This document shows positions 1-14,542 of a stretch of 15,679 nt of DNA, piece after piece. The DNA is taken from contig CAKSWA010000046.1 of NCBI GenBank assembly GCA_934511165.1, positions 1 to 15,679 of the forward strand, written 5' to 3'. The position numbers and the translations under genes were made by a program. This DNA comes from an uncultured Oscillospiraceae bacterium. Its GTDB lineage: Bacteria > Bacillota > Clostridia > Oscillospirales > Oscillospiraceae. The notes beneath the pieces are model-generated. The model was given only the letters and a program-made list of their open reading frames with translations. It ran no database searches and had not been told where the DNA came from. How positions within the stretch are numbered: position 1 is the first letter of the stretch; each line of letters begins with the position of its first letter.

Positions 1-76
1 AGCACCCCCTGATGTAGTTCTATTTTCCTACATCAGGGGGTGTTTTGTCTATTGTCCGTTTTTACTGGTCCTGTTC
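1..76. repeat. Left copy of a perfect 76-bp inverted repeat (partner at 7217..7292). It has an internal hairpin (stem 3..17 / 28..42, loop 18..27) followed by TTTTGTCT and a second TTTTT run.
   Basis: Reverse complement of 1..76 equals 7217..7292 base for base. Position 77 versus 7216 may add one more matching base. The window starts at position 1, so the repeat could extend further left. Confidence 0.9.
3..50 (+). terminator. Intrinsic-terminator-like hairpin inside the left inverted repeat, oriented to stop rightward transcription entering the module.
   Basis: A perfect 15-bp stem (CACCCCCTGATGTAG / CTACATCAGGGGGTG) with a 10-nt loop is followed on the plus strand by TTTTGTCTATTGTCCGTTTTT. 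Confidence 0.4.
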
Positions 77-99
77 AAAAGGAAAGCGGGAATTTTTTG

Positions 100-939
100 T
101 TATCTCAGCTTTTTGAGCTCTTCGAGCACCGAGTACGGTATTGCGAGATTGCCGCAGCCCGTGCCCATGGAGATATGGGTTTTGCGCGTGCCGTGGTAGT
201 CGCTGCCGCCGGAAACGCCCATGCCGTACTTCTCCGCGGCGCGCAGCAGCCACGCGGTCTGCTCGGCGGAAAACTCGGAATAATACGCTTCCAGCGCCCG
301 GATGCCGAGCGCCTTTGCCGTTTCGATCAGCTCGATGAGCTCCGGCTCCGGGTAATGGTACTGCATCGGGTGCGCGAGCACCGGTACGCCGCCCGCGGCG
401 ACGATCGTTTCCACGGCTTTTGCAATGGAGATCCGGCGCTTCGGCAGATAGTACGGTTTGCCCTCGCCGAGGTACTTTTCAAATCCCTCCTTTACGGAGG
501 AGATGTATCCCTTGCGTATCAGATGCTCGCAGAAGTGCGGGCGGCCGAGCACCGAGTCCGGGTACTCCTCGCGCAGCTGCGCGATGGAGATATCAAACCC
601 GTCGCGCTCGAACATCGCGGCAATCTTCTCGTTCCGTTCGTCCCGCTCGGTCTTCACCCAGTCGAGCACCGGGCGGAGCTGCGGCGCGGCGGGGTCGATG
701 AAATAGCCGAGGATGTGGACGTTGTTGTCGCGGTAGTCCGAGGACACCTCGATCCCCGGCACGACCTCCACGCCGAGCTCCGCCCCGGCGCGCATCGCCT
801 CCGGCACGCCGGAGACGCTGTCGTGGTCGGTGATGCTCACCGCGGCAAGGCCGAGGGCCGCCGCCTTTTCCACCGCGGCACGCGGCGAATCCGTGCCGTC
901 CGAGGCCGTCGTATGAATATGCAGGTCAATATAACTCAT
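100..939 (-). CDS. PHP-domain metal-dependent phosphoesterase (TrpH/YciV-like)
   Basis: The N-terminus reads MSYIDLHIHTTASDGTDSP...ITDHD, with conserved His/Asp metal ligands throughout. The ATG at 939 has AAGGAAAC about 8 nt upstream. The longer ORF in the track (start 1116) overlaps the upstream gene and is less likely. Confidence 0.8.
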   Translation of the reverse strand: MSYIDLHIHTTASDGTDSPRAAVEKAAALGLAAVSITDHDSVSGVPEAMRAGAELGVEVVPGIEVSSDYRDNNVHILGYFIDPAAPQLRPVLDWVKTERDERNEKIAAMFERDGFDISIAQLREEYPDSVLGRPHFCEHLIRKGYISSVKEGFEKYLGEGKPYYLPKRRISIAKAVETIVAAGGVPVLAHPMQYHYPEPELIELIETAKALGIRALEAYYSEFSAEQTAWLLRAAEKYGMGVSGGSDYHGTRKTHISMGTGCGNLAIPYSVLEELKKLR

Positions 940-976
940 GGATAAATGGGTTTCCTTTTGCGGAGAATTTTGCCCG

Positions 977-1498
977 TCAGGGCTTCCAGTCGTAGCTGCC
1001 GCTGTTCTGGCTGCCGTTCTGGCCGTTATTCTGGCCGTAGGGGTTCTGCTGGTAGGGGTTCTGGGTATAACCGCCTTGCTGACCGTAGGGGTTCTGCCCG
1101 TAACCGCCCTGGCCATACCCGCCGCCGTAGCCGCCGGAGGGGTATTTGGGGCTGTCGCCGTACTGGTTCCAGCCGGGCTGGCTGTCCTTGCAGAGCCAGA
1201 TGATCAGGATGATCTGCCCGACGAGGGGGATAAAGTTCAGGAAGAACCACGCGCCGCTGCGGCCGATATCGTGCAGACGCCGCCAGCAGACACCGAGGCC
1301 GGGCAGGAACACGCCGATGTTCCAGAGCGAGAGCAGCAGCGAAGGAAAGTTGCTGTCGGTATTGCGGACAAACGCGGTGAGGACCGCGGTCACCGCCCAG
1401 TTGAGCAGCGCGAAGTACCAGTACTCGCTTCGCCGCGCGCGGCCGGAAAAGCAGAGGTACTTCTGGAATACGGATGTGATGGCTTGCTGAAAGCTCAT
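977..1498 (-). CDS. DUF805-family inner membrane protein with a C-terminal G/Y/Q/N-rich low-complexity tail
   Basis: It carries the RRSEYWYF...CWRRLHDIGRSGAWF motif typical of DUF805 (YhaH/YhaI-like). A strong GGAAGGAG site sits 6 nt upstream of the ATG. The tail (GGYGQNPYGQ...) is encoded by tandem GTAGGGGTTCTG-like DNA repeats at about 1035..1115. Confidence 0.75.
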   Translation of the reverse strand: MSFQQAITSVFQKYLCFSGRARRSEYWYFALLNWAVTAVLTAFVRNTDSNFPSLLLSLWNIGVFLPGLGVCWRRLHDIGRSGAWFFLNFIPLVGQIILIIWLCKDSQPGWNQYGDSPKYPSGGYGGGYGQGGYGQNPYGQQGGYTQNPYQQNPYGQNNGQNGSQNSGSYDWKP

Positions 1499-1539
1499 GG
1501 GTTTATCTCCTTCCGGTTTGTCTTTTTCTGTGTGGGAAT

Positions 1540-1568
1540 ATAGTATCGTACTTTCCCCTCGATTGCAA
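1540..1568 (-). promoter_or_regulatory. Putative sigma-70 promoter for the DUF805/PHP operon
   Basis: Minus strand TTGCAA (1568..1563), a 17-nt spacer, then TACTAT (1545..1540). It lies about 40 nt upstream of the RBS. Confidence 0.3.
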
Positions 1569-1695
1569 GAGCCGTTCCGGCGGGTTCCCGGCAGGTTTTT
1601 CTCGCCGCATTTATATCTTCTTTATATACTCCCTTCTTTTTGCCAACATTTTTGCTATCTTTTTTCAAAAAAGTACAGAATGTTTGTTATTTCTA

Positions 1696-1724
1696 TTGCT
1701 ATGGCGCGTTTTAGGGCGTATAGT
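1696..1724 (+). promoter_or_regulatory. Putative sigma-70 promoter for the SulP permease gene
   Basis: TTGCTA (1696..1701), a 17-nt spacer, then TATAGT (1719..1724). The GGAGGG RBS at 1744..1749 and the GTG start at 1755 follow. Confidence 0.35.
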
Positions 1725-1754
1725 GGACAGGCATGTTTTTTTGGAGGGATTTTC

Positions 1755-3398
1755 GTGATTGCTTCGTTTTTTGCCGGATTAAAGAGAGAATTTTCCGGCT
1801 ACAACGCCGCGAGACTGATGAAGGACGTTCTTGCCGGTCTCACGGTATGCGCCGTGGCGCTGCCGCTCGCGCTCGCGTTCGGCGTTTCATCCGGCGCTTC
1901 CGCCGCGGCGGGACTCGTTACGGCGATTATCGCCGGTATCGTCATTGCGCTGCTCGGCGGCGCGTCGTTCCAGATTTCCGGCCCCACCGGCGCGATGAGC
2001 GCGGTGCTCGTCGGCATCGTGGCAACGCACGGCTTGCAGGGCGTATTTTTCGCGTGCTTCGCCGCCGGAATCTTACTGCTGCTCGCCGGTGTGCTCCGGC
2101 TCGGGCGGCTCATCAGCTTCATTCCGATGCCCGTCATCATGGGCTTCACATCCGGCATTGCGATCATCATTGCGCTCGGCCAGATCGACAATTTCTTCGG
2201 CACAACGTCCGAAGGGCTTACAAACATCGAAAAGCTGCTCTCCTATGGGCGGCTCGGCTTTCATGTGAACTGGCAGGCGGCGCTCATCGGGCTGCTCGTC
2301 GTGGCAATCATGATCCTCTGGCCGAAAAAGTGGGGCGCGCGCGTCCCCGGCTCGCTTGTCGGCATCATCGTGGCCGCCATCACTGCGGGTGTATTCCACA
2401 TGGATTCTCTCGCCACCGTCGGCGACATTCCCCGCACGCTGCTGCTCGCCGACCGGCTGGATCTCTCGTCGCTCAATTTTGCGATGGTCAAAGACTTGCT
2501 CTCACCCATCGTGACGATCGCGGCGCTCGGCATGATCGAGAGCCTCCTTTGCGGCGCTTCCGCCTCACGCATGAAGGGCGAGGCGTTCAACGCCGATCAG
2601 GAGCTGATCGCGCAGGGTGTCGGCAACATCCTTCTGCCGCTCTTCGGCGGCGTGCCCGCCACGGCGGCCATCGCCCGCACGAGTGTGGCGGTCAAGTCCG
2701 GCCAGCAGACGCGCCTGACGAGCGTTTTCCACTCGGTATTCCTGCTCGCGTCCATGTTCCTGCTCGGCGGCGTGATGGCGCGGCTGCCGCTCTCGGCGCT
2801 CGCGGGCGTGCTCATGGTCACGGCGTGGCGCATGAACGACTGGTCAGGCATCCGTTACGTCTTCCGCCACAAATTCAAATCCGGCATCAGCCAGTTTCTG
2901 CTCACGATGGTCGCGACGGTCGTATTTGATCTCACGGTCGCGATTCTGTTCGGCGTTGTCTACTCCGCCATTTTGTACATGGCCAAGTCCAGCCAGATCC
3001 GCGTGAGTTTTTCGGCCATCGATACGAACAAGCTCCGCGCCATCGACGGCAAGCCGCCGATCCTCGAATCCGCGGGCGTGGCGTATGTAACGGGCGCGCT
3101 GTTTTTCGGCGCGGTGGACGAATTCAATCACCGTATGGCGGAGATGCCCGCCTACGATCATGTGATCCTCTCGATGCGCGGCATGCCGAGCGTGGACGTG
3201 TCCGGCGCGCAGGCGATGCTTGAGCTGTGTGAGAATCTGCTTGCGCTGGGCAAGACCGTGGCCTGCTGCGGCATGAGCGAGAGCGTCCGGCGCTACTTTG
3301 ACCGCGCCGGGATCACTGAGGTTCTCGGCGAGAACGCGTATTTCTGGAGCGCCGACCAGGCGATCCTCGATCTGCTGGACGCGGAAATTGTGGAATAA
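1755..3398 (+). CDS. SulP-family inorganic anion (sulfate/bicarbonate) permease with a C-terminal STAS domain
   Basis: It has FAGLKREFSGYNAARLMKDVLAGLTV...ALPLALAFGVSSGAS and many transmembrane segments, with a C-terminal STAS domain (...VDVSGAQAMLEL...). I chose the GTG at 1755 because of GGAGGG 5 nt upstream. The ATG at 1701 and the track start at 1497 lack an RBS. Confidence 0.8.
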   Translation: MIASFFAGLKREFSGYNAARLMKDVLAGLTVCAVALPLALAFGVSSGASAAAGLVTAIIAGIVIALLGGASFQISGPTGAMSAVLVGIVATHGLQGVFFACFAAGILLLLAGVLRLGRLISFIPMPVIMGFTSGIAIIIALGQIDNFFGTTSEGLTNIEKLLSYGRLGFHVNWQAALIGLLVVAIMILWPKKWGARVPGSLVGIIVAAITAGVFHMDSLATVGDIPRTLLLADRLDLSSLNFAMVKDLLSPIVTIAALGMIESLLCGASASRMKGEAFNADQELIAQGVGNILLPLFGGVPATAAIARTSVAVKSGQQTRLTSVFHSVFLLASMFLLGGVMARLPLSALAGVLMVTAWRMNDWSGIRYVFRHKFKSGISQFLLTMVATVVFDLTVAILFGVVYSAILYMAKSSQIRVSFSAIDTNKLRAIDGKPPILESAGVAYVTGALFFGAVDEFNHRMAEMPAYDHVILSMRGMPSVDVSGAQAMLELCENLLALGKTVACCGMSESVRRYFDRAGITEVLGENAYFWSADQAILDLLDAEIVE

Positions 3399-3424
3399 AT
3401 TGCATATATGAGCATATATGATTT

Positions 3425-3463
3425 GAGCCGCGGAGGGAATTCCCTCCGCGGCTCATTGCTTTA
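3425..3463 (+). terminator. Rho-independent terminator after the SulP gene
   Basis: A perfect hairpin GAGCCGCGGAGGG-AATT-CCCTCCGCGGCTC (3425..3454) is followed by ATTGCTTTA. Confidence 0.55.
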
Positions 3464-3497
3464 CAGGCTTGGCATGCAGCAGGGGGCGGTTTCGTTT

Positions 3498-3527
3498 TTC
3501 AAAATCCCCGGCGGCGCATGTTATAAC
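3498..3527 (+). promoter_or_regulatory. Putative promoter with extended -10 (TGtTATAAC) for the micro-ORF/SPFH/PcfJ operon
   Basis: TTCAAA (3498..3503), an 18-nt spacer, then TG-n-TATAAC (3519..3527). It lies about 28 nt upstream of the first small ORF. Confidence 0.3.
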
Positions 3528-3554
3528 CGTAGTTGAAGGGAGGAAGGAAAAGCG

Positions 3555-3656
3555 ATGATAAACCGTTCCATCGAAAATGCCTTTGCAGAAAAAGAGGCGG
3601 CATTCGGCAGGATTCTGGAGGACGGCGACAAACTTACGATCGAAACGGAGGGATAA
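3555..3656 (+). CDS. Small hydrophilic protein, 33 aa (MINRSIENAFAEKEAAFGRILEDGDKLTIETEG)
   Basis: An excellent RBS GAAGGGAGGAAGG ends 6 nt before the ATG. It is too short for the ORF track. Its stop codon lies within the RBS region of the next micro-ORF. Confidence 0.4.
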   Translation: MINRSIENAFAEKEAAFGRILEDGDKLTIETEG

Positions 3657-3660
3657 GGCA

Positions 3661-3741
3661 ATGGCAACGACAATGGCGGCCATATGTGCGCTTCTGGGTC
3701 TGGGGCTTCTGATCTGGGGGTTCGCTGTCGCGAGTTGGTGA
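3661..3741 (+). CDS. Hydrophobic single-transmembrane micro-protein, 26 aa (MATTMAAICALLGLGLLIWGFAVASW)
   Basis: GGAGGG sits 8 nt upstream of the ATG. The sequence is entirely hydrophobic and transmembrane-like. It is tandem with the preceding 33-aa ORF. Confidence 0.35.
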   Translation: MATTMAAICALLGLGLLIWGFAVASW

Positions 3742-3791
3742 CGCGAGCTTGCAGCGCACACAAAACATCACAAAAAGGAGAGGATGATTAC

Positions 3792-4763
3792 ATGTATCAG
3801 AGAATGCGCATCAGTGTGATCCGCGATCCCGGCGGCGACAGCCTGATCCGCTGTCAAGGCGACCTTTGTGGGCGCGGTAAAGGCGTGGTCGATGGAAGTC
3901 TTCTTCTGGTTCCGCCCAACACCACTGCCTATGCTTTCTGCAACGGCGTGATCTCTCCGGCGATCCCGCCGGGGCGGTACGAGCTGCTTAACACCGGAAT
4001 CCCTTCGCCGTTCTTCCATAGGCTAAAAATCATTCTTACCCGCGGCGATCCCGGCACCGATCTACGCGTTTTCTTCATTTCCGAAAGGACGAAATTCTAT
4101 AAGCTCGGCACCGGGGAGCTGCTTTTCACGAAGCGTTTAGGTCAACAATTCTCCTTCACAATGACCGCACTGGCCGCCTGTGGACTCGCCATGTCCGTTT
4201 CGGATCCCCTGAGGCTCATAAAAACGCTGGTTGGCTCTTGCACCGCGCTCGGCGAAGAGAATGTTGAAGCATGCTATCGCCATGCGATCCTGACCACCGT
4301 ACGTGAAGCGCTCTCGCGGGAAATCAACAAGCTTACTATCACCGAATTCAACAGTCATTTGACAGATATTTCGAGCGCGGTCTTCCCGGTCGTTTCCAAA
4401 GAGCTGGACGCCTACGGCCTGCATCTTGCGTCGTTTAAGGTCGAGGCAATAAACATCCCGGAGACGGAGCGCGGCAAACTGTTCGCCATGGAACAGAAAT
4501 ACGTGGACACAGATGTGGAGTTCGATAACTTGCAGCGCATCTTTGGCGGCTCGCTGAAAGACCGAACGGCAGCAGAAGCCTTGACCGGCATTCCCAGCCG
4601 GGGGCAGATTCTGCCCGCCGGAACCGGGGGCGGTATGGTGACGCCCCTGATACAGCTGGCCATGCTCAGCCGGGCCATGAAGAACCCGGATCTCTTCGAC
4701 GGCATCACGGACATGTATACCGGTGCTTCCTCTTCCGATGATGAAAAGAAAGGAACGACTTGA
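3792..4763 (+). CDS. SPFH/band-7 superfamily protein of the YdjI-like group (323 aa)
   Basis: AAAGGAGAGG lies 9 nt upstream of the ATG. Motif order matches my recall of YdjI-type SPFH proteins: IRDPGGDSLI..., LLLVPPNTTAYAFCNGVISPAIPPGRYEL...NTGIP, ...LRLIKTLVGS and ...KELDAYGLHLASFKVEAINIPE. This is from memory, not a search. The track start at 3684 has no RBS. Confidence 0.55.
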   Translation: MYQRMRISVIRDPGGDSLIRCQGDLCGRGKGVVDGSLLLVPPNTTAYAFCNGVISPAIPPGRYELLNTGIPSPFFHRLKIILTRGDPGTDLRVFFISERTKFYKLGTGELLFTKRLGQQFSFTMTALAACGLAMSVSDPLRLIKTLVGSCTALGEENVEACYRHAILTTVREALSREINKLTITEFNSHLTDISSAVFPVVSKELDAYGLHLASFKVEAINIPETERGKLFAMEQKYVDTDVEFDNLQRIFGGSLKDRTAAEALTGIPSRGQILPAGTGGGMVTPLIQLAMLSRAMKNPDLFDGITDMYTGASSSDDEKKGTT

Positions 4764-4765
4764 CG

Positions 4766-4879
4766 ATGAAACGCCATTACTCTCTCATTCTTCCCGTTGC
4801 CGTTGGTCTCGCGGCGGTGTTCCTGCCGCCTCCGCCGCCTCTTCCGCCGCAATACGGATCTTACCGATACGGGAGGTAA
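4766..4879 (+). CDS. Micro-ORF, 37 aa, with a transmembrane-like N-terminus and polyproline tract (MKRHYSLILPVAVGLAAVFLPPPPPLPPQYGSYRYGR)
   Basis: The ATG is 2 nt after the SPFH stop, with AAAGGAA 10 nt upstream. Its last codons contain the GGGAGG RBS of the downstream gene, and its stop is 6 nt before that gene's GTG start. Confidence 0.3.
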   Translation: MKRHYSLILPVAVGLAAVFLPPPPPLPPQYGSYRYGR

Positions 4880-4885
4880 TTTGTC

Positions 4886-6439
4886 GTGCCAAAGAAGAAT
4901 GTAGCCTCTCTTGCCGAAAAGTTCCCGGAGGCTGTCCGCTGGGGCGATGTACCGGATCAAAACCGTCCCGACGTGAACACCGGCAGGGGTTGCTCGGCGG
5001 CTTATGCAGAGGAGGTTCGATTGCTCCTTGAGAAGCATTTCGGGACACCCGTGCCCTCTCTTACACTTGACGCACCGCCCCGCGGAGAAAAGAACACGCG
5101 GTATTTTCTTATACTGGATGACGCAGAGAAAGAGAAAATCCGCGCGCTGCGCGATACATTCAACGCGCTTCCTGCCGCGGTCAAGGCCGGTTTCCCGGAG
5201 CTCATTCAGCCTGAAGCGAAGCCGAAACCGCAGCGGCAGGCCATCCGGTGCGTCAAGCTTCAGATGAACCGGGAAGTGTGGGTCATACAGTTCTACACCT
5301 TGGAGGGGGTGAAATATCACCGTTCTCTCGGCCGGACCATCGCGGCTGCGCTGCTCCCCGGCAAGCGTCCGTTCATCACGCTCTCCTCGGATGCTCCTGC
5401 AAGCGAGTTCTACGGGCTGTGGAACCCGCCGCAGGACAAAAGCGACTTTTTCTATCCCGGCCGGAACGAAGGAATGCGCTACAGCGTAAACAAAAATCTT
5501 ATGGAGAATCGTGCCTTCCGCGGTTTCGTGGTTGGCTTTCTCCGGACGGTCGCCGCGGCAGAGAAAAAACACATTCTTAAAGACGCTGCGCGCACCATTG
5601 AGCGTTGCGGCTGCTTTCTGCCGCAGCTGTCGTTTCCGGCTCTTCTCAAATTTCATACGCCGGGCGAGATCATCGCGAGCGTCCTCCCGGCGCGAAATGT
5701 CCTAAACCGCAATCTCAACACCCTCGATCTGAACGCCGGGTACGTCGCCGCCCGTTTCCTTTCGATGATCGATCCGCAGGATCGCCCGGCGCTTTCGTGC
5801 ATCACGGCCGAAGACGTACATCGTGTCCTTGCGAATGCGCCCTCGGTTCTGTTTCACGGCATGGGCACGAGAGCCGGGGTCACAGCCTATCTCGACGCCT
5901 ACATAGCAGATAAGTTTCGACAGGAGCCCTTTGATTTCAATCCCTCCGGGGCGTTGGCCATGGCGCGGGATTACCTGAACATGTGCGAAAATCTGCATGT
6001 AAAGATAAGGTATGGCCTTGAGCCGGAGGCATATCTGCGCGCCCATGACGAGCTTGCCCGGCTGCAGCGGGATCGCATAGCGGAACAGGAAGATGCGCAG
6101 CCGCTGATCACCGAGCCCTCCGGATTCGACAAGCTGGAAGCTGTCTTGCCGGGCGAATTTACCCGGATGCGGTCAACAAGGCAGCTCCGGCTTGAGGGTC
6201 AGCGCCAGCGGAACTGCGCATTCAGCCGCCGCGGGCTCCTGCGCTCAGATACGGCCGCGATTTTTCATTGGGACTGCGGGGAAAAGTCTTACACCGTGCA
6301 ATTTGGCATACTGCCAAACGGCCGGTATAGTATTGACGAGATGCGCGGCCGCTGCAACGAGCCCTGTCTGCCGGAGCACCGGCGAAAGCTGGAGGGGCTT
6401 CTCCGCGGGATCAACCGCAAGGGAGCGTTGGGGGCATAG
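4886..6439 (+). CDS. Large protein (517 aa) with a PcfJ-like C-terminal region; function unknown
   Basis: The GTG start has GGGAGG 9 nt upstream. The C-terminal segment LEGQRQRNCAFSRRG...IFHW...YTVQFGI...YSIDEMRGRCNEPCLPE resembles, from memory, the conserved block of PcfJ-like proteins (PF14284), which are typical of conjugative plasmids, ICEs and phages. This is unverified. Confidence 0.45.
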   Translation: MPKKNVASLAEKFPEAVRWGDVPDQNRPDVNTGRGCSAAYAEEVRLLLEKHFGTPVPSLTLDAPPRGEKNTRYFLILDDAEKEKIRALRDTFNALPAAVKAGFPELIQPEAKPKPQRQAIRCVKLQMNREVWVIQFYTLEGVKYHRSLGRTIAAALLPGKRPFITLSSDAPASEFYGLWNPPQDKSDFFYPGRNEGMRYSVNKNLMENRAFRGFVVGFLRTVAAAEKKHILKDAARTIERCGCFLPQLSFPALLKFHTPGEIIASVLPARNVLNRNLNTLDLNAGYVAARFLSMIDPQDRPALSCITAEDVHRVLANAPSVLFHGMGTRAGVTAYLDAYIADKFRQEPFDFNPSGALAMARDYLNMCENLHVKIRYGLEPEAYLRAHDELARLQRDRIAEQEDAQPLITEPSGFDKLEAVLPGEFTRMRSTRQLRLEGQRQRNCAFSRRGLLRSDTAAIFHWDCGEKSYTVQFGILPNGRYSIDEMRGRCNEPCLPEHRRKLEGLLRGINRKGALGA

Positions 6440-6448
6440 CATCACAAA

Positions 6449-6488
6449 GCTTAACCGCCGCCAGGCAGCTGCCCGGCGGCGGTTAAGA
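6449..6488. terminator. Bidirectional terminator: GC-rich near-perfect palindrome of about 38 bp between convergent genes
   Basis: GCTTAACCGCCGCCAGGCAGCTGCCCGGCGGCGGTTAAG has one mismatch. It lies between the PcfJ-like stop (6439) and the minus-strand stop at 6493. Confidence 0.55.
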
Positions 6489-6492
6489 TGCT

Positions 6493-7128
6493 TCATTTCT
6501 CAATTTTAAAAGGGTTTTCGTCCCAGCGGTCTGGCTTCAGAACGCTTCGCTTTGCAACGCTTTTCGGGTTTTCCTTGGATATTGCGTCAACGGCTGCGAT
6601 CAAAAAGGCGCCGCTGACAATTGCCCAAAACCAGCGGCGAAATGCAAAGAGGATCGCTGTCACGAATGCGATGCCGGCGGCAAGAAAAATATACGTCAGG
6701 AGCGGGACTTTCTGCTCGGCATAGTTGTCCCGGCGGGATTCATAAACATTTTCGGCGTAATTTCGCATCTCGTCTGTAACAGCGTTGAATCGCACGAGCT
6801 TTTCCCAGACTCCGGATGCATACCCTTTTCCGCAGGGGTCGAGATCCTGAAAATCGTGTGTCTCGGCTTTTAAAATAAGATGATAAAGACGCACCTCGAG
6901 CGGATGATCGGCTGCCAGCTGCCGGAAAAGGTCGGACGCTGTAGGCCAGTTTCCGGCTTCGAGATGGGCTATTGCCTTAGCATACTTCCGGCTGTCTTCC
7001 ATCTGCTTTTTTGCATCATCGAACTGGTCGATCGGCGTCCCACAGAGATCACAAACGAGCCTCATCTTTTTGTTCAGATGATAGGTGCTGCAGCCGCATC
7101 GCGGGCAGGCCTGCGTTTGATTCATCAT
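6493..7128 (-). CDS. Zinc-ribbon / TPR-like / C-terminal transmembrane protein (211 aa), function unknown
   Basis: It starts ATGATG with GGAGGGG 5 nt upstream. The N-terminus has CPRCGCSTYH...CDLCG. The middle is helical and TPR-like. The C-terminus has two hydrophobic segments (LTYIFLAAGIAFVTAILFAF / FWAIVSGAFLIAAV). The track start at 7248 is an unsupported extension. Confidence 0.6.
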   Translation of the reverse strand: MMNQTQACPRCGCSTYHLNKKMRLVCDLCGTPIDQFDDAKKQMEDSRKYAKAIAHLEAGNWPTASDLFRQLAADHPLEVRLYHLILKAETHDFQDLDPCGKGYASGVWEKLVRFNAVTDEMRNYAENVYESRRDNYAEQKVPLLTYIFLAAGIAFVTAILFAFRRWFWAIVSGAFLIAAVDAISKENPKSVAKRSVLKPDRWDENPFKIEK

Positions 7129-7146
7129 AAGATCCCCTCCTGTATT

Positions 7147-7161
7147 CTGTGTTAAACACAG
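7147..7161. promoter_or_regulatory. Perfect 15-bp palindrome CTGTGTT-A-AACACAG in the 5' region of the zinc-ribbon gene
   Basis: It is seen directly and lies 19..33 nt upstream of the start codon on the minus strand, abutting the RBS. It is a candidate operator. Confidence 0.3.
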
Positions 7162-7216
7162 TATCTCACATTTCAAAAAGGGAAATGGGAAATGAAAAGC
7201 AGCCCCCGCAGACGGT

Positions 7217-7292
7217 GAACAGGACCAGTAAAAACGGACAATAGACAAAACACCCCCTGATGTAGGAAAATAGAACTACATCAGGGGGTGCT
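7217..7292. repeat. Right copy of the perfect 76-bp inverted repeat (hairpin at 7251..7290)
   Basis: It is the exact reverse complement of 1..76. On the minus strand the hairpin is followed by the T-runs, so it would stop leftward transcription entering the module. Confidence 0.9.
7243..7290 (-). terminator. Terminator-like hairpin inside the right inverted repeat, minus-strand orientation
   Basis: It mirrors 3..50. Confidence 0.35.
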
Positions 7293-7295
7293 GTT

Positions 7296-7472
7296 ATGTC
7301 AAAAAGAGAATATACCCATGTACGGTTGCTGTATCCAGAGATTAAAGCAATGATAGAAGCAGGGAAAACGCAGCGGGAGATCGCGGAATACTATGGATTC
7401 AAGGACAAGTATGTAGTAAAGGGACTGTTTGCTTATACGGCATACCCTGATATTATTATGGAGAGTCTTTAA
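7296..7472 (+). CDS. 59-aa helix-turn-helix-like protein, possibly the N-terminal remnant of a transposase or recombinase gene
   Basis: The sequence is MSKREYTHVRLLYPEIKAMIEAGKTQREIAEYYGFKDKYVVKGLFAYTAYPDIIMESL. The ATG lies 4 nt after the right repeat. Its only SD-like sequence (GGGGG) sits within the hairpin stem. It is below the track's length cutoff. Confidence 0.3.
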   Translation: MSKREYTHVRLLYPEIKAMIEAGKTQREIAEYYGFKDKYVVKGLFAYTAYPDIIMESL

Positions 7473-7540
7473 CTCGCAGTGAACCACAAAACAATTACAA
7501 TCAAAGTCTAAATTAGAAGTTGGAGGTGTTTCTCATTGCC

Positions 7541-7564
7541 AATCATAACAAATCTGTTATGATT
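7541..7564. repeat. Perfect 10-4-10 inverted repeat AATCATAACA-AATC-TGTTATGATT in an AT-rich 416-bp non-coding leader
   Basis: It is seen directly. It is a candidate operator or element-end remnant. Confidence 0.5.
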
Positions 7565-7888
7565 AGAATTTAAAACAATATTATACAAAAATTTTATGCT
7601 GTGCTAGTATTATTTTGTTGCAACAGACAGACGGCGCGCCCTTGTGTCAGAGTTCAGAAAAATCCAATCTAAGTTTATACCCTATATTTTAATGCAGAAT
7701 CTGGGAGGTTATTCGTTTCTGCTTTCGTAACAGGCATAGTGCAGGATTATATTATTCCTTTCTATTGACATCGAACTGGAATAATTCGAAAACTTCCAAC
7801 AAGAGCTATTCACTTCTACTTTAAAGTGGCGGCTCTCGCCAAATTCTGCCCCTAAAGACCCTTAAAAAAAGAAAGTGAGGGAATCCTT

Positions 7889-9076
7889 ATGACTTGGTCT
7901 CCTATTTTGGCATTCGCAGTGATTGCGCTGGCATTTGGCATTGGCGATGTGATTGCTGCAAAGACACGCGGCGTTATCAGTTCCGTCTTGGTGGCTATTC
8001 TTTTGTTCCTTGTATTTGGAAGTACGTTCAAACTTCTTCCTGCCGATTTGATGAATCAGTCTGGCCTGATGAGCCTTATTCCCACGTTCGGTATGGCTCT
8101 TATTCTCGTGAATGTGGGTTCTATGCTTGATCTGAATGTTCTGAGACGTGAATGGAAAACCGTCCTTGTTTCGCTTGCAGGTGTGGCTGGATTAGTAGTG
8201 ATCTACCTCACTGTTGGCACATTGATTTTTGGCAAGGAGTACGCTCTGGGAGCGATGGGCCCTGCCTCTGGCGGTATGGCAGCAACCATGATTCTAACTG
8301 CTGCGGCGAACGAGGCCGGACGTGCAGATCTGGCAGGTTTCGTCGCTTCGGTGATGGCCCTTCAGGTTCTGGTTGGACTCCCTATTGCATCCTTCTGCCT
8401 GCGAAAAGAGGCTAACCGATTCTTAAATGCTGGCGAAAATCAGCGGGCCAAAATGCTGGAAGAAGGCAGAAAACTGAGCATTCGTATTTTGCCTGAAACC
8501 CCCGAAGTACTGGACACCCCGAATATCCATCTGGCTCGAGTGGCACTTGTTGGGTTTATTGCCTATATGGTGACTTCCCTGACTGGTATTTCCACAGGTA
8601 TTACATATTTGGTGGGTGGTGTGCTGTTTGCTGCCTTGGGTGTCATTGAACCGGGTGCTGTTCGAAAAGCTGGTGCGGAGGGCCTGCTGATGCTGGCTAC
8701 TTACTGCAGTGTCACCAGCAGCTTCGTGAGCATGACTCTTTCACAGTTCGGCGGAATGCTTCCGTCAGTTGTTGGCCTGTTGCTGATTGGAGCAATCGGT
8801 GTTATTGGATTCTCTATATTAGTTGGAAAACTTCTAAAATGGAGTCCGTGGCTGTCTGTTGCTGTTGGTATCGGTTGTATGTTGGGCTATCCTGTAAACT
8901 ATGCTGCAGCCATGGAAGTTTCTTCTGGCGTATCCAAGGGAAGAGGACTCAATAAAGAAGATGAGCAGAAATTGGTGGATCAGTTACTGCCCAAGATGAT
9001 CGTCTCTTGTGTGGTATCGATAAGTATTGCTTCTGTGATACTGGCAGGCGCCATCGCCCCTATTTTGTTTGGTTAA
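7889..9076 (+). CDS. Polytopic membrane protein, putative transporter (395 aa); family not confidently assigned
   Basis: GTGAGGG lies 7 nt upstream of the ATG. It has about 10 to 12 predicted hydrophobic helices. It ends 1 nt before the amidohydrolase start and is probably a substrate transporter for it. Confidence 0.65.
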   Translation: MTWSPILAFAVIALAFGIGDVIAAKTRGVISSVLVAILLFLVFGSTFKLLPADLMNQSGLMSLIPTFGMALILVNVGSMLDLNVLRREWKTVLVSLAGVAGLVVIYLTVGTLIFGKEYALGAMGPASGGMAATMILTAAANEAGRADLAGFVASVMALQVLVGLPIASFCLRKEANRFLNAGENQRAKMLEEGRKLSIRILPETPEVLDTPNIHLARVALVGFIAYMVTSLTGISTGITYLVGGVLFAALGVIEPGAVRKAGAEGLLMLATYCSVTSSFVSMTLSQFGGMLPSVVGLLLIGAIGVIGFSILVGKLLKWSPWLSVAVGIGCMLGYPVNYAAAMEVSSGVSKGRGLNKEDEQKLVDQLLPKMIVSCVVSISIASVILAGAIAPILFG

Positions 9077-10288
9077 ATGACAAATATGAATACGCTTTTG
9101 AACGATGCGCGGATTCTGCAAGAAGAGATTGTTGCAAATCGTCGCGCGATTCACAAATTTGCAGAAGTAGGGTTTGATTTACCTCATACCTATGCCTACG
9201 TCTTTGATAAGTTGATCGAGTATGGCTATAACCCCCAAAAGGTTGGTAAGATGGGCATTACCTGTTTGGCGGGGAAGCCTGGGGCCACTATCTTGCTTCG
9301 GGCAGATATGGACGCTCTTCCCATGATGGAGGAGAGCGGAGAAAGCTTTGCTGCCACCAATGGCAATTGCCATTCTTGCGGACATGACTGCCATACCGCA
9401 ATGCTCTTAGGAGCAGCCAAGCTCCTGAAAGAACGGGAAAACGAACTGTGCGGAACAGTAAAGTTCATGTTTCAGCCTGCCGAAGAGATCATGGGCGGAG
9501 CCCTAGATATGTTGGAAAATGGCATCTTAGAAAACCCTAAAGTGGATATGGCTTTGGGCCTTCATATCATTACCGGAAACGAAATCAGCAAGTCAGGGCG
9601 TATCTGCTGTATTCACCATTGTGTAGCTACTTCAGGCGATGCAATAAAGATTACTGTGCAGGGAAAGGATGCCCACGGCTCACTGCCGGAAAAAGGTGTA
9701 GATGCAATTCATATTGCTGCTCATATCATCCTGGCCTTAGAGGAACTGACAGCTCGTGAGCTTCCCATGAAGCAGGACAGTATTGTTTTGGTGGGACGTA
9801 TTGTGGGTGGTACAACTTGCAACAGCGTAGCCGGTGAGACAACACTGGAGGTATCTGTTCGTACTAACGGCCCTGAAGAGCGCAATTTTCTTCTTAAACG
9901 AGTTGAGGAAATCGCCACCGGTGTAGCAGCTACCTTCCGGGGAAAAGCAAAGGTAGAACATTTATATGGTGCTCCACCACTTGTAAACCCCGAACCGGAG
10001 TTGTTGGAAATTCAGTCATACCTAAGGGAAATGCTTCCACAGGAATTTGTTGTAGACTGTCCCAAGATGGGTGGAAGTGAGGACTTTACGATGGTTTCCG
10101 AACGGGTGACATCAGTATTTCTTCAACTTGGAGTGGGAAGCATTGATGAAGGCTACCCATGCGGTCCCCATCAGCCTGCTATGCGGGTGGATGAATCTGC
10201 CCTCCCAGTGGGTGTGGCCGCTTATACTCAATGTGCTTTGCGCTGGCTGGAAGAACACCAAAATGAAGAACCTAGATTTGATAGATAA
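9077..10288 (+). CDS. M20D-family amidohydrolase (N-acyl-amino-acid amidohydrolase / hippurate hydrolase-like)
   Basis: It carries HSCGHDCHTAMLLGAAK, the metal-binding signature of the ama/hipO-type M20D peptidases. The N-terminus reads LQEEIVANRRAIHKFAEVGFD. The start is coupled to the upstream gene (TAAATG) with no SD. Confidence 0.85.
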   Translation: MTNMNTLLNDARILQEEIVANRRAIHKFAEVGFDLPHTYAYVFDKLIEYGYNPQKVGKMGITCLAGKPGATILLRADMDALPMMEESGESFAATNGNCHSCGHDCHTAMLLGAAKLLKERENELCGTVKFMFQPAEEIMGGALDMLENGILENPKVDMALGLHIITGNEISKSGRICCIHHCVATSGDAIKITVQGKDAHGSLPEKGVDAIHIAAHIILALEELTARELPMKQDSIVLVGRIVGGTTCNSVAGETTLEVSVRTNGPEERNFLLKRVEEIATGVAATFRGKAKVEHLYGAPPLVNPEPELLEIQSYLREMLPQEFVVDCPKMGGSEDFTMVSERVTSVFLQLGVGSIDEGYPCGPHQPAMRVDESALPVGVAAYTQCALRWLEEHQNEEPRFDR

Positions 10289-10326
10289 AACTGGGGGAAT
10301 TGCTTCCTTTTTGATGAGTAAAAATC

Positions 10327-10401
10327 ATGTTAGGAATTGTGTTTAATGCAGCGAGTGTGATATGCGGCAGCTTTTTTGGCGTGCTGGTTGGGAAAAAATA
10401 A
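10327..10401 (+). pseudogene. Possible 24-codon N-terminal remnant of a DUF554-type membrane protein gene
   Basis: MLGIVFNAASVICGSFFGVLVGKK resembles DUF554 N-termini (YdfK-like). There is no RBS and the frame terminates immediately. Confidence 0.2.
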
Positions 10402-10561
10402 ATCATTCCTTTGCAGAAGTAATGAATCAGGTCTTGCCGTATTGCAAAACTGTGTGACTTTCCAGTAGCAGATATGCTTCCAGCCCTTGTAATAGTCTTT
10501 CCCTTGAGTGCACTTTGGGGCCGGATTCCGCTCTAATCTAACTTATTCTCAAAAGCCATCT

Positions 10562-10590
10562 TTCAAGTATAGAAATATTTATGGTATACT
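10562..10590 (+). promoter_or_regulatory. Putative promoter (extended -10 TGgTATACT) for the LysR gene
   Basis: TG-n-TATACT at 10582..10590 with a weak -35 TTCAAG. It lies about 25 nt upstream of the AAAGGAG RBS. Confidence 0.3.
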
Positions 10591-10631
10591 GGCAATGTCC
10601 TGAAAGTGGGTAACGAAAAGGAGTTGGATAT

Positions 10632-11558
10632 ATGACGATTGAACGGCTCCGCTGTTTTGTGGCGGCAGCAAAGCACTTGAATTTCACTCGGGCAGCAGCA
10701 GAACTGCACATGGCCCAAACTGCCATGAGTCGGCAGATTGCTACGTTAGAGGATGAATTAAACTGTCGCCTATTTGATAGGACCAATCGGTCTGTCCAAC
10801 TCACCCCCGCGGGCAAGTGCTTTTTTGATGGAATTGGCCCTTTGCTGAAATTATATGATAAGACCATAGAAGAAACTCAAGTAGTAAGTAAGCGCTTGGC
10901 AGGAGAACTGCGGGTAGGAATTGGACAGTATGAGCAAAGTTTTGTCTCTGAATTGGTGCGGGAATTTCATCAGAGTTATCCAATGGTAGAGGTAATGGTA
11001 ACCAAGTATGGCTATCAGGACTTGCTCGAACACTTGGTCACAGGAGAGATAGATGTGGCGTTTGCCCTCCCAGTCAGCACTGAATATCTGGCAGATCAAG
11101 AGGTAGAGATACGGGAACTCTTCTATTCGGATGTTTGCATTGCGGTGTGTGAGAATCATCCGATGGCTGGTGCAAAGACATTTCCGAAGGAACGCTTTGA
11201 GCAAGAGCGTCTTTTAACTATCAGTGAAGAGGATGGTCCATGTTCTTTTCGTATCTTGATTGAAAAATTTGAAAAAAAACACGTGCGCTTTAAGGATATT
11301 CGTCGAGTAAACAGCCTGGATGCAGCACTTTTGATGGTCAAGGCGGGGCTGGGCATTGCTATAATCCCTGAATTCTTAAAAGTAAGGGTGCCAGAGGGAG
11401 TTACCACAGTTCCTACCAGAGGTTGGCAAGCGGCAGGGAATCAGTTTGTGGCTATTTCACGCAAAGGTCATAAAGAATCGCAGGTTGAAGCTTTTCTTCA
11501 GGGAATCGCAACATCCCATACTCTTTGGGAACAAATGGAACTACTTAATGTCTACTGA
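10632..11558 (+). CDS. LysR-family transcriptional regulator
   Basis: It has an N-terminal HTH (IERLRCFVAAAKHLNFTRAAAELHMAQTAMSRQIATLEDEL) and a C-terminal substrate-binding domain. AAAGGAG lies 8 nt upstream. Confidence 0.85.
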   Translation: MTIERLRCFVAAAKHLNFTRAAAELHMAQTAMSRQIATLEDELNCRLFDRTNRSVQLTPAGKCFFDGIGPLLKLYDKTIEETQVVSKRLAGELRVGIGQYEQSFVSELVREFHQSYPMVEVMVTKYGYQDLLEHLVTGEIDVAFALPVSTEYLADQEVEIRELFYSDVCIAVCENHPMAGAKTFPKERFEQERLLTISEEDGPCSFRILIEKFEKKHVRFKDIRRVNSLDAALLMVKAGLGIAIIPEFLKVRVPEGVTTVPTRGWQAAGNQFVAISRKGHKESQVEAFLQGIATSHTLWEQMELLNVY

Positions 11559-11566
11559 ACAATAGC

Positions 11567-12602
11567 CTATTTTTCCACGGGCATGAAAATAGCCAGCAGA
11601 TATGTAAGCAAACGCAAAATGGCGCACTGAATCTTGCGGAGATTCAGCACCAGAACGGACATAGCAATCACATGGGCAGCCGTTTCCCGCAGTTTAGCGG
11701 TGACAAGTCCCATACCGCATTTTCGCTTTGCCAGACTGAACTTGCGCTCCACTTCCACGCTCGCACTCATCCCGGTAATCCTGAGCCTTGTCTCTGGTTT
11801 CGCCCTTCTTAGGACGTCCCAGTGCCGGACCGGATAGCCGGATTCCGTGTGCCTTGCAATAGTTGAGATTCTCACGGTTTCGGTAGATCTTGCCTGCCAG
11901 AATGCGGCTTGGATAATGTCCTTCCCGCTCCCGGAACCGTTCCGCCATCTCCTGCAGATTCCCAGCTTCATTGTAGGCATCAAAAGAGCAGCATTCCAGC
12001 CGTGTCCATCCATCTACAACACTGATGTCCAGCTTGGCGCCAAACTCCACCGGCTTGCCTGTTTTTCCCCGTACGATGGGACGGACGAAAGGCTGGCTCA
12101 CACTGACGATTCGGTCATTCACATGGTGGGTGTGGTTATCATACATGTACTTCTGCTGCTCATAGATGGTGCGGACCGTATCCAGACGTTCCATCTGCCG
12201 TGTGGTCAAGGTTTTTCCAAGGGACAGTTTGCCATCTATGGCATCGAGGTCACGCCGGAGATAAGTCAGCTGCTTTCCGATTGCTTTGCGGGTCATCTTG
12301 GCGGTATGCTTGCGACATCTTGTGTATTTCAGGTAATCTTTCCGGGCCCGCTTGCGGTAAGTGCGTGGCTTCTTCCCATCCGCGGGATCATGGAGAACAT
12401 CCAGAAGCGCCTCGGCGTTCTCTCTGGCCTCATTGAGCAGAGAAACGTCCTGGGGATAACGGATATTGGACGGTGCACAGGTGGCGTCCACAATCATGGT
12501 GCCGCTGTTTCCGCCTGTTCCTGGATGATTGCCAGAGTCATTATCGTCATCCCTGGATTTGGCCTCTTTTTCCTGACGCTCCTTTGCGTCCCGCACGATC
12601 AT
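11567..12602 (-). mobile_element. Decayed IS5/IS1182-superfamily (DDE_Tnp_1-type) transposase gene: N-terminally truncated and frameshifted near 11756..11770
   Basis: Frame 1 (11694..12602) has TMIVDATCAPSNIRYPQD...YRNRENLNYCKAHGIRLSGPALGRPKK. The expected C-terminal block VEVERKFSLAKRKCGMGLV...LNLRKI continues in a different frame (11567..12013). The catalytic Asp lies only about 35 aa into the ORF, so about 100 N-terminal residues are missing. No terminal inverted repeats are evident, and the last stop is only 8 bp from the LysR stop. Confidence 0.7.
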
Positions 12603-12626
12603 CTCATTTTTTTGACAAAGGACAGC

Positions 12627-13412
12627 ATGGTTTTCAATTCCGCGGAGGAAATCAATGGCCTGTACGTTGTCTTAAACGGAACACTGGAATCCTTTTTCTA
12701 TGAAAACGGAAACTATTACACAAACAAGATCCTCAAGCAGGGCGCAATCGTCGGGACGAGCCGGTTTTTGACCGGCGGCCGTCACACGGGATTGAAATGC
12801 CGGACCGATGCGATCGTTGCCTATGTTTCCCATGATGTCCTGATCCGCTGGGATAAGCAGGCGCTGCTGCAGCTTCTTTCCACCCAGTCCCAGAAAAACC
12901 AGCACCTGATCAACCAGATCACAACGCTGTTCCTGTGCTCCTGTACGAAGCGGCTGCTCCTTTTCCTGTACGAAATGGCAAAGGACAATCTCACCATGGG
13001 AAGAATGGATATCCCGGTTCAGATCTCCATATCCAACAAGGACATTGCCAGCATCATCAACACCTCCCGGGAGATCGAGCTTCTCGCGGTGGTTGACGGC
13101 GAGGTCGTTGGCACCGCTGGGATAGACGCCGTCGGAACAAAATACAAAGTGGCGCACCGCGCCGAATTCGGCATCAGCGTGCTGAAGGAATTCTGGGGGC
13201 TTGGCATCGGCCGCGCGATGATGGACGCGTGCATCCAATGCGCGAGAGACGCCGGGTATGTCCAGCTGGAGCTGAGCGTGGTGGCGGACAACGCTCAGGC
13301 GATCGCCATGTACCAAAGGGCCGGGTTCGTGGAATGCGGCCGGAACCCCAGGGGCTTCCGCTCACGGGCGGCGGGGTATCAGGAAGTTGCTTCCATACTT
13401 CTGACGCTGTGA
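12627..13412 (+). CDS. Mosaic ORF: a Crp/Fnr-type fragment (cNMP-binding domain plus partial HTH) fused in frame to the C-terminal two-thirds of a GNAT acetyltransferase
   Basis: The 12603..13080 part is Crp-like (AEEINGLYVVLNGTLE...GAIVGTSRFL...RLLLFLYEMAK...ISNKDIASIINTSREIE) but lacks both its N-terminus and its recognition helix. From about 13081 it continues as GNAT motifs (AVVDGEVVGTAG...EFWGLGIGRAMMDA...AIAMYQRAGF). Base composition changes visibly at the same point. Confidence 0.5.
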   Translation: MVFNSAEEINGLYVVLNGTLESFFYENGNYYTNKILKQGAIVGTSRFLTGGRHTGLKCRTDAIVAYVSHDVLIRWDKQALLQLLSTQSQKNQHLINQITTLFLCSCTKRLLLFLYEMAKDNLTMGRMDIPVQISISNKDIASIINTSREIELLAVVDGEVVGTAGIDAVGTKYKVAHRAEFGISVLKEFWGLGIGRAMMDACIQCARDAGYVQLELSVVADNAQAIAMYQRAGFVECGRNPRGFRSRAAGYQEVASILLTL

Positions 13413-13460
13413 CGCACCCCGCAAAGAAAAACATACGGCAGCAGAGGAAAAGAAACGTCT

Positions 13461-14409: not shown

Positions 14410-14414
14410 CAGAA

Positions 14415-14449: not shown

Positions 14450-14459
14450 CAAAACCCTA

Positions 14460-14488: not shown

Positions 14489-14496
14489 AAAAATAA

Positions 14497-14511: not shown

Positions 14512-14542
14512 ATTATGAAGTTCCCCAGCAAAGGAGCCAATC

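Follow-up and report, generated by a model that had tools for sequence, protein, structure and literature searches.

Organization of the locus

Positions 3498–7128 of contig CAKSWA010000046.1, from an uncultured Oscillospiraceae bacterium (assembly GCA_934511165.1; the whole analyzed stretch of 15,679 nucleotides (nt) is called the window hereafter), carry six open reading frames (ORFs) centered on an SPFH protein and a PcfJ-like protein (Table 1). Five of them, namely the micro-ORFs m1 and m2, the SPFH gene, the micro-ORF m3 and the PcfJ-like gene, form an operon bracketed by two strong terminator hairpins, and the sixth, a gene for a zinc-ribbon/TPR-like protein with two transmembrane (TM) segments (ZnTPR), converges on it. 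All six ORFs were recovered at the positions and in the form given by a preliminary description made from the sequence alone. We consider them here together with their counterparts in other genomes, which include a four-TM protein (Mem) and, in a larger operon that we call the parent operon, a ubiquitin-like (Ubl) protein with its conjugation enzymes.

The strong ribosome-binding sites (RBSs) claimed for every ORF are present as GGAGG-type Shine-Dalgarno motifs 5–12 nt before every start, although the copy of m3 is weak (AAAGGAA). The single upstream promoter that had been proposed was not returned by a consensus scan upstream of m1, but a plausible extended −10 element can be discerned by eye. 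The GTG start of the PcfJ-like gene is confirmed by its homologues, which start MPxxxV. Rfam and tRNA scans over the whole window were empty, and hence there is neither a riboswitch leader nor a tRNA integration site. A 13-nt palindrome (TGTGTTAAACACA, 7148–7160) lies 20–32 nt before the ZnTPR start on the minus strand, between this gene and an interrupted terminator, and may be the operator of a separately transcribed ZnTPR gene.

Table 1. Coordinates of the genes and transcription signals of the cluster in the window
Feature	Position	Strand	Description
Intrinsic terminator of upstream SulP/STAS gene	3424–3455	+	14-bp stem, 11 GC, T-rich tail; SulP assigned from Pfam
Candidate promoter	3498–3527	+	TTCAAA (3498–3503), 18-nt spacer, extended −10 TGtTATAAC (3519–3527); spotted by eye, unverified
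m1	3555–3656	+	33 aa; vestige of a Ubl (beta-grasp) gene
m2	3661–3741	+	26-aa TM peptide, all hydrophobic (Kyte-Doolittle 2.34); N-terminal TM helix of a larger TM/PPLPxR/zinc-binding protein
SPFH	3792–4763	+	323 aa, soluble, Band_7_1 of the YdjI/SamI type, without C-terminal zinc ribbon
m3	4766–4879	+	37 aa, one TM segment followed by PPPPPLPP; Mem vestige; starts 2 nt past the SPFH stop
PcfJ-like	4886–6439	+	517 aa; GTG start 6 nt past the m3 stop
Bidirectional intrinsic terminator	6450–6487		17-bp stem, 12 GC pairs; between PcfJ-like and ZnTPR
ZnTPR	6493–7128	−	211 aa counted from the MM start; converges on the operon

The three large proteins

The SPFH protein matches PF13421 (Band_7_1) at 46.1 bits (cutoff 24; E=5.9e-12) and PF01145 at 27.9 bits (cutoff 23.6), in agreement with its first assignment. 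It has no membrane anchor, as no 19-mer attains 1.6 on the Kyte-Doolittle scale, and its AF2 model, of moderate confidence (mean pLDDT 67), shows a beta-rich N-terminal part, a core of alpha/beta type and a long helix spanning residues 224–265. A search for homologues yielded 78. Nearly all of the aligned paralogues of ~364 aa carry a C-terminal zinc ribbon (RCPSCNG...CPICG) that is absent from the window SPFH and from the proteins P0005 and P0006, all of which end before it. The proposed likeness to YdjI therefore extends to the Band_7_1 subfamily and to the soluble character of the protein, but not to the C-terminal zinc finger of YdjI/SamI (PMC8581546).

The ZnTPR protein comprises an N-terminal CxxC-x14-CxxC zinc ribbon, a TPR-like helical region, a C-terminal TM hairpin and a conserved terminal NPF. 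Its four ligand-type cysteines (C8, C11, C26 and C29) do not vary among 17 diverse homologues, its N-terminus resembles the eS27/eL37 zinc ribbons (E=6e-5), and its two adjacent hydrophobic segments occupy residues 140–184. These features uphold the zinc-ribbon and TM parts of the initial assignment; the middle region yields only sub-threshold TPR_14 and TPR_16 matches and is called 'TPR-like' for this reason. The protein is 32–44% identical to its orthologues in the related loci L001, L017, L020 and L021, and is the predicted membrane anchor of the SPFH protein.

The PcfJ-like protein aligns by its C-terminal ~150 residues to positions 3–143 of the 147 of PF14284, with a borderline score of 24.9 bits (cutoff 25; E=1.9e-5). 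The precomputed Pfam entry of P0001, a protein 99% identical to it, includes PF14284, and a Foldseek search of its AF2 model (pLDDT 90.3, pTM 0.81) against BFVD gave 24 matches at E≤1e-3, most of them with probability 1.0 and most annotated as phage PcfJ-like proteins, so that the original call stands. The global TM-scores of these matches are low (0.17–0.26), as expected for a flexible three-domain protein; the domains are an alpha/beta domain (40–170), an all-alpha domain (199–420) and the PcfJ core (425–517). No fold match to the model was obtained in the PDB. Across 34 full-length homologues, D233, N278, L407, N443, D455, T470 and N491 are invariant, and a near-invariant motif E437-G-x-x-Q-x-N443-C444 stands out, which reads Q-H-N-C across the aligned homologues (N443 invariant, C444 near-invariant) and Q-R-N-C in the window.

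An exhaustive profile search places this protein in a family of 536 representative clusters at E≤1e-3, of which the 56 at E≤1e-30 form a small Clostridia subfamily with the full-length architecture of 470–520 aa; larger proteins of 600–770 aa share just the C-terminal ~300 residues. On plasmids, tblastn found only two remote matches, the PcfJ-domain proteins of Butyrivibrio and Enterococcus plasmids at 20–24% identity, and among 50,697 phage records it found none. A literature search on PcfJ and PF14284 found no functional description of any member. The name PcfJ derives from plasmid pCF10.

Related loci in sister lineages

The closest SPFH homologues, at 62–64% identity, come from sister lineages that also possess a PcfJ-like gene (L001/L002 and L017–L019). 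There, the genes for a transglutaminase-like protein, SPFH, a Mem of 188–210 aa, ZnTPR and the PcfJ-like protein follow one another in this order on one strand, and the L001/L002 proteins are identical to those of the window at 62% (SPFH), 44% (ZnTPR) and 48% (PcfJ-like) of positions. Upstream, L001 additionally encodes a protein kinase, a beta-grasp-like protein of 93 aa and a TM ORF of 22 aa. A further lineage, L004, has ZnTPR followed by the PcfJ-like gene (53% identity).

The SPFH, ZnTPR and PcfJ-like genes thus go together in four or more lineages, with proteins that are 44–62% identical, and since the same genes co-occur in independent lineages, their arrangement is not due to chance. 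Moreover, ZnTPR is located directly 5′ of the PcfJ-like gene on the same strand in three sister lineages (L001/L002, L017 and L004). This co-linearity shows that the convergent gene belongs to the system, as its proposed functional link to the operon had implied, and that ZnTPR has been moved and inverted in the window lineage.

More distant PcfJ-like genes have other surroundings. A 12-sequence alignment was used to retrieve 11 genome loci with full-length PcfJ-like proteins at 31–36% identity, from Oscillospiraceae, Lachnospiraceae, Christensenellales-like and other Clostridia metagenome-assembled genomes, and none of the 11 has SPFH or ZnTPR within 10 kb. Their neighbors include a MoxR-type AAA ATPase with DUF2201 (VWA/metallopeptidase), other AAA ATPases, a WYL regulator, an ADP-ribosylglycohydrolase and a metallophosphoesterase, and this context is heterogeneous and cargo-like. 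The neighborhood test that had been set for the system thus has a positive answer, as the SPFH–ZnTPR–PcfJ adjacency recurs in other genomes, but it does so only within one subclade, from which it follows that the pairing of PcfJ-like with SPFH was a single acquisition that this subclade has kept. In L008, L010 and L013 (~7697–11494), which are near-identical copies of one element, overlapping genes for a MoxR-type AAA protein and DUF2201 are directly followed by the PcfJ-like gene and then by a CbbX-like AAA gene, forming another recurrent PcfJ context.

The parent operon

A search with an SPFH profile retrieved 80 metagenome loci, whose ORFs were labeled by BLAST. The distant SPFH homologues among them (33–50% identical, ~364 aa, with the C-terminal zinc ribbon) are embedded in a strikingly constant operon that recurs in 78 related loci in the order (YbjN-like)–Ubl–~142-aa TM/Pro-rich/zinc-binding protein–ThiF-type E1–~209-aa protein–~287-aa JAB–transglutaminase-like–SPFH–Mem–ZnTPR–variable 3′ genes. 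Counted as loci with the gene over loci with sufficient flank, ZnTPR is found in 56/56, Mem in 55/59, the transglutaminase in 64/65, JAB in 58/59, the E2-like 209-aa protein in 49/53, ThiF in 44/47 and Ubl in 39/43, and an ORF of 121–161 aa occupies the interval between Ubl and ThiF in all 44 loci. Clustering of the SPFH sequences of these loci gives 28 groups at 90% identity and 11 at 60%, and thus the parent operon is not one repeated element.

The enzymatic assignments come from several sources. The E1 is a ThiF protein by precomputed Pfam annotation, with weaker, sub-cutoff matches to the E1-E2 models of PADLOC and the ThiF-family models of NCBIfam. The profile of the 209-aa protein has UBC enzymes as its best PDB matches, across the active-site region YP...pN...G.aCiD with its invariant Cys, and the 287-aa protein contains an exact JAMM motif, HTHPDLGVFYSGTD. 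The Ubl shows weak matches to UN_NPL4, Rad60-SLD and DUF2604, and matches were further obtained to Transglut_core, DUF87/HerA, Colicin-DNase and WHH. The parent Ubls terminate in G-V-A(-A), not GG. In L020, whose operon lies at 93–110 kb of contig JAJCKG010000001.1 (GCA_020558355.1), the Ubl is tandemly duplicated (L020:3162–3725, 187 aa, two near-identical beta-grasp units), and L043, L046 (10241–10927) and L054 have an additional Ubl-related ORF of 228 aa between ZnTPR and the HerA-like ATPase.

The 3′ slot is the variable part of the operon. In 33 of 43 loci it holds an FtsK/HerA-superfamily ATPase, with weak similarity to VirB4, TraG and TraD, and a Colicin-DNase/WHH nuclease; elsewhere the slot is empty, or it is filled by PP2C-like and kinase sets or by ClpP with a large ATPase-like gene after it. 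A PcfJ-like gene occupies the slot only in the window's own subclade. The preliminary description had supposed that the PcfJ-like protein takes the place of PspA in an envelope-stress operon. This view has to be replaced, as the ancestral context is Ubl–E1–E2–JAB–transglutaminase–SPFH–Mem–ZnTPR, and the PcfJ-like gene stands in the usual slot of the HerA-like ATPase and the WHH nuclease.

Kinase genes recur around the platform. A PP2C-like gene, a gene for a ~490–520-aa protein and a Ser/Thr kinase gene follow ZnTPR in L081 (12162–16031) and the nuclease in L046 (14329–18346), and the kinase gene of L001 (3833–5080) is ahead of the Ubl-like gene in the PcfJ subclade. The SPFH platform thus seems to have phosphorylation modules among its alternative partners.

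Several proteins of the parent operon share a proline-rich PP(L/M)PxR motif. JAB carries it at its N-terminus, the E2-like protein (in two copies) and Mem carry it at their C-termini, and it also lies in the C-terminal linker of SPFH and in the linker of the TM/zinc protein, with examples in L020, L021 and L069–L101 (L020:5483–6112, 6129–6992, 8001–9095 and 9096–9647; L021:3722–4150). Its recurrence across these proteins suggests one common docking receptor. The window contains only a degenerate, polymorphic copy of PPLPxR, in m3.

Where the flanks of the loci are informative, the parent operon sits among conjugative-element genes. L021 is flanked by genes for coupling proteins of type IV secretion systems (T4SSs; T4SS-DNA_transf/TraG) and L020 has a KilA-N gene, both of which point to carriage by conjugative elements at these two loci. 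PADLOC did not recognize the parent operon as a known system, only its generic E1 and HerA models matching, and a literature search on operons with SPFH and Ubl found no functional description. The link between a Ubl-conjugation set and a SamI-type SPFH membrane module, encoded by 9–10 genes in human-gut and rumen Clostridia, thus appears undescribed, and the parent operon is a more interesting discovery than the reduced cluster of the window.

The micro-ORFs as remnants

The micro-ORFs had been taken for dedicated micro-proteins. Our alignments show them instead to be what is left of larger genes: m1 derives from a Ubl of ~95 aa, m2 from a TM/Pro-rich/zinc-binding protein of ~142 aa and m3 from a four-TM protein of ~180–210 aa. 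The m1 peptide aligns to both ends of Ubl proteins of 93–119 aa (L001, L020, L021, L089, L098 and L101; tblastn match in L001, E=0.001), retaining the N-terminal ~17 residues and the last strand LEDGDKLTI (L-x-D/E-G-D-x-L-x-I), and ~60 core residues are gone. Similarly, what m3 retains of Mem is the first hydrophobic segment, at the N-terminus, and the PPLPP(R) tail at the C-terminus, with a blastp match to the PPPPLPP tail of the L001 Mem, and ~150 residues are gone. Since L001 has the full-length genes, both truncations are restricted to the window lineage, and m1 and m3 are relics of recent in-frame deletions. Their translation is probably just incidental, or else they are kept open for translational coupling.

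For m2, the alignment is to the N-terminal TM helix of the ~142-aa TM/PPLPxR/zinc-binding protein from the Ubl–E1 interval of the parent operon. L001 has a 22-aa counterpart with its own RBS at the equivalent position. The truncation is therefore common to L001 and the window, and a TM ORF of 22–26 aa has persisted across considerable divergence; m2 is an older truncation that may persist as a genuine TM micro-protein. For micro-ORF discovery in general, these observations counsel caution, given that all three well-formed, RBS-bearing 'micro-genes' are truncation relics of larger genes.

Genomic setting and strain comparison

Two other strains of the species, L023 and L024, are both 99% identical to the window at the nucleotide level. 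The L024 sequence is a contig from a human-gut metagenome; it is colinear with positions 81–7217 and 13914–15551 of the window, and its flanks consist of housekeeping genes (sugar kinase, GntR, PHP, DUF805, SulP, Fur, rubrerythrin, pyrophosphatase and proline symporter). No integrase, relaxase or T4SS gene was found within ~6 kb on either side in the window or in L024. The possibility that the cluster is carried by a mobile element in this genome was rejected on account of the housekeeping flanks of L024; the cluster is a resident chromosomal island of ~3.7 kb.

The SPFH, PcfJ-like and ZnTPR genes are intact and full length in all three strains. The ratio of nonsynonymous to synonymous polymorphism (pN/pS) of the large window genes, built on 3–18 substitutions per gene, is 0.08–0.55, like that of the adjacent housekeeping genes, with 0.26–0.41 for SPFH and 0.08–0.32 for the PcfJ-like gene; the substitutions in ZnTPR are too few for a judgment (each comparison has two nonsynonymous changes and no more than one synonymous). 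The large proteins of the window are not outliers at family-invariant columns. These signs of purifying selection are such that SPFH, ZnTPR and the PcfJ-like protein look selectively maintained. The micro-ORFs behave otherwise: m1 differs from that of L024 by three nonsynonymous and no synonymous changes, and the proline motif of m3 reads PLLP in L023 and is lost through an in-frame deletion of 12 nt in L024. Both window-specific deletions (in m1 and m3) and this 12-nt polymorphism are in frame.

Interpretation

The reading that we favor, with a confidence somewhat short of even, is that the cluster is a reduced chromosomal descendant of a larger Ubl-linked operon, in which an SPFH/ZnTPR membrane platform would be combined with a PcfJ-like output in a conflict function. 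In that operon, Ubl, ThiF-type E1, UBC-like E2 and JAB make up a conjugation set, and the transglutaminase-like protein, the soluble YdjI/SamI-type SPFH, Mem and ZnTPR make up a membrane module. In B. subtilis, SamG, a TM protein with a zinc ribbon, recruits the soluble Band_7_1 protein SamI/YdjI to the membrane together with SamH, itself a membrane protein (PMC8581546; bioRxiv 10.64898/2026.02.06.704340). By analogy, we infer that the TM hairpin of ZnTPR would set its zinc-ribbon/TPR-like domain at the cytoplasmic face of the membrane and would there recruit and organize soluble SPFH oligomers, as SamG and SamH do with SamI. The SPFH scaffold might then hold or gate the cytoplasmic PcfJ-like protein, which could act as the effector or output in a conflict function, either anti-phage or anti-plasmid. 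The PcfJ-like protein is the predicted output because it is seated in the effector position of the ATPase–nuclease pair. Neither E1, E2, JAB and transglutaminase genes nor a complete beta-grasp Ubl were found in the window; lacking E1, E2 and JAB, the module cannot perform Ubl conjugation.

Several points weigh against this interpretation. The window is without Mem, the transglutaminase and the docking motifs of the parent operon, and the scaffold may therefore be non-functional. The wider PcfJ-like family occupies quite different contexts (MoxR with DUF2201, WYL, ADP-ribosylglycohydrolase), m1 has only nonsynonymous changes and the m3 motif is polymorphic, the pN/pS figures have few substitutions behind them, and no PADLOC model matches any window protein.

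Decay is the best-placed of the rival explanations, although we consider it unlikely. The cluster would then be what remains of the Ubl/SPFH operon of an integrated element on its way to pseudogenes, with no coordinated function and with large ORFs not yet hit. The losses of E1, E2, JAB and the transglutaminase, the internal deletions in the Ubl, TM/zinc-protein and Mem genes, the relocation and inversion of ZnTPR relative to the sister lineages, the pattern of changes in m1, the varying or deleted PLPP of m3 within the species, and the vicinity in L024, which has no remaining mobile-element genes, are all consistent with it. However, decay accounts poorly for three large genes that are full length in three strains, with pN/pS near that of their housekeeping neighbors and no outlying residues at invariant columns. 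The RBSs, the tight gene spacing and the terminators are likewise preserved, both window-specific deletions and the 12-nt polymorphism are in frame, and SPFH, ZnTPR and PcfJ-like have stayed together despite divergence to 44–62% identity.

An envelope-stress or membrane-maintenance module resembling PspA–SamGHI, in which SPFH and ZnTPR would sense or stabilize a stressed membrane and the PcfJ-like protein would be an accessory replacing PspA, is less probable still. The two have features in common: an anchorless SPFH protein of the same Band_7_1 subfamily is encoded beside a protein with an N-terminal zinc ribbon and TM segments, the SPFH of the parent operon also adjoins a multi-TM protein, and the 364-aa paralogues share with SamI the SPFH domain, a low-complexity region and the C-terminal zinc finger. 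The likeness of ZnTPR and Mem to SamG and SamH, however, is an analogy of architecture (zinc ribbon plus TM; multi-TM), the gene order is SPFH–Mem–ZnTPR here and G–H–I in Bacillus, and the window SPFH has no SamI-type zinc finger. PspA is absent from the Pfam scans of the window ORFs and from the gene tables of L001, L017, L020 and L021, and neither PspA/IM30 nor LiaI/F, PspC or a sigma-W-type regulator appears in the window scans or among the Pfam families annotated for the related loci inspected. Instead, the conserved partners are Ubl, E1, E2, JAB, the transglutaminase and a nuclease, and two of the loci looked up have T4SS-coupling or KilA-N genes, a signature of conflict and mobile elements rather than of a housekeeping stress operon.

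Least probable of all is a conjugation accessory inherited from an integrative and conjugative element (entry exclusion, mating-pair stabilization or an establishment function). In its favor, T4SS-DNA_transf/TraG genes flank L021, ZnTPR in L068 and L074 is followed by ClpP and then by a large ATPase-like gene, at the position of which L021 has a T4SS coupling-protein gene, the HerA-like ATPase is weakly similar to VirB4, TraG and TraD, and distant PcfJ-domain proteins reside on Butyrivibrio and Enterococcus plasmids. Against it, the surroundings of the cluster in the window and L024 are free of relaxase, T4SS and integrase genes within ~6 kb, the 3′ slot usually holds a DNase of the WHH/colicin type, which is an effector of toxin type and not transfer machinery, and PcfJ-like proteins are also common in lytic phages.

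Relation to known systems

As had been suspected, the combination of genes found in the window is not a described system: none of the six window proteins matched PADLOC-DB 2.0 at E≤0.1, NCBIfam and PHROGs gave nothing useful, and the searchable literature does not mention it. The parent operon shares with the bacterial Ubl-conjugation operons (classes 6a–6e; Bil, Bub and CBASS Cap2/Cap3) a Ubl, sometimes in tandem, a ThiF-type E1, a UBC-like E2 and a JAB/JAMM protein, and its conjugative-element neighborhood at two or more loci fits the theme of PMC1779556. It differs from them in the SPFH, the transglutaminase-like protein, Mem and ZnTPR, and the PPLPxR motif, which are absent from the accessible descriptions of the Iyer-Burroughs-Aravind classes 6a–6e and of Bil/Bub, and in its Ubl, which ends in G-V-A. 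The window keeps none of the enzymes and just the 33-aa Ubl relic.

The ATPase and the HNH-fold (WHH/colicin DNase) nuclease of the parent 3′ slot recall HerA-associated nuclease defense, whereas the window has neither gene and the PcfJ-like gene fills the slot. Compared with PcfJ (PF14284) of pCF10-type plasmids and large phages, the C-terminal ~150 residues fit the model and the whole protein finds phage fold matches with Foldseek probabilities up to 1.0, but the identity to the plasmid proteins is only 20–24% and the phage records gave no tblastn match.

It is conceivable, although we hold it with less confidence than the reduced-descendant reading, that the window is a survivor of an undescribed ubiquitination-like class, in which Ubl, E1, E2 and JAB are tied to a membrane platform made up of the TM/zinc-binding protein, the transglutaminase-like protein, a SamI-type SPFH, Mem and ZnTPR, with apparent PPLPxR docking and swappable effectors. 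The effectors of such a class might be a HerA-like ATPase with a WHH nuclease, kinase/phosphatase sets, or a PcfJ-like protein, and the class would be associated with conjugative elements, as judged from the few informative flanks. If such a class exists, PcfJ-like proteins, which are widespread in phages and plasmids, would be conflict-system effectors, and SPFH scaffolds would connect bacterial Ubl signaling to the membrane. The parent operon would bridge bacterial ubiquitination-like immunity and SPFH/flotillin membrane organization. PcfJ-like proteins form a large family in phages and plasmids, and the cluster gives genomics a point of entry to them by placing a member in an 'effector slot' that is otherwise held by an ATPase–nuclease pair.

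Neighboring sequence features

Window positions 7218–13913 are a strain-specific insertion of 6.7 kb that stands in place of 1.37 kb of L024 sequence and cuts through a terminator hairpin present there. Its GC content is lower (0.39–0.51), and it encodes a 58-aa helix-turn-helix fragment of insertion-sequence type, a 395-aa membrane protein or transporter without a Pfam match, an M20 peptidase, a LysR regulator, a truncated DDE transposase, a cNMP-binding/GNAT chimeric ORF and a DUF5131 fragment.

Window positions 1–77 and 7216–7292 form a perfect inverted repeat of 77 nt, which contains a 40-nt palindrome (CACCCCCTGATGTAG...CTACATCAGGGGGTG). Colinearity with L024 ends exactly at both arms (81 and 7217), and thus the same element end abuts both sides of the 7.1-kb segment that includes the cluster. 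Assemblers often use a k-mer of 77 nt, however, so that the left copy may be an artifact of the contig end or of a repeat instead of a second insertion. Finally, the DUF805 membrane protein encoded on the minus strand at 977–1498 has a G/Q/N/Y-rich low-complexity C-terminal tail that arises from imperfect 45-nt tandem repeats (1031–1123).

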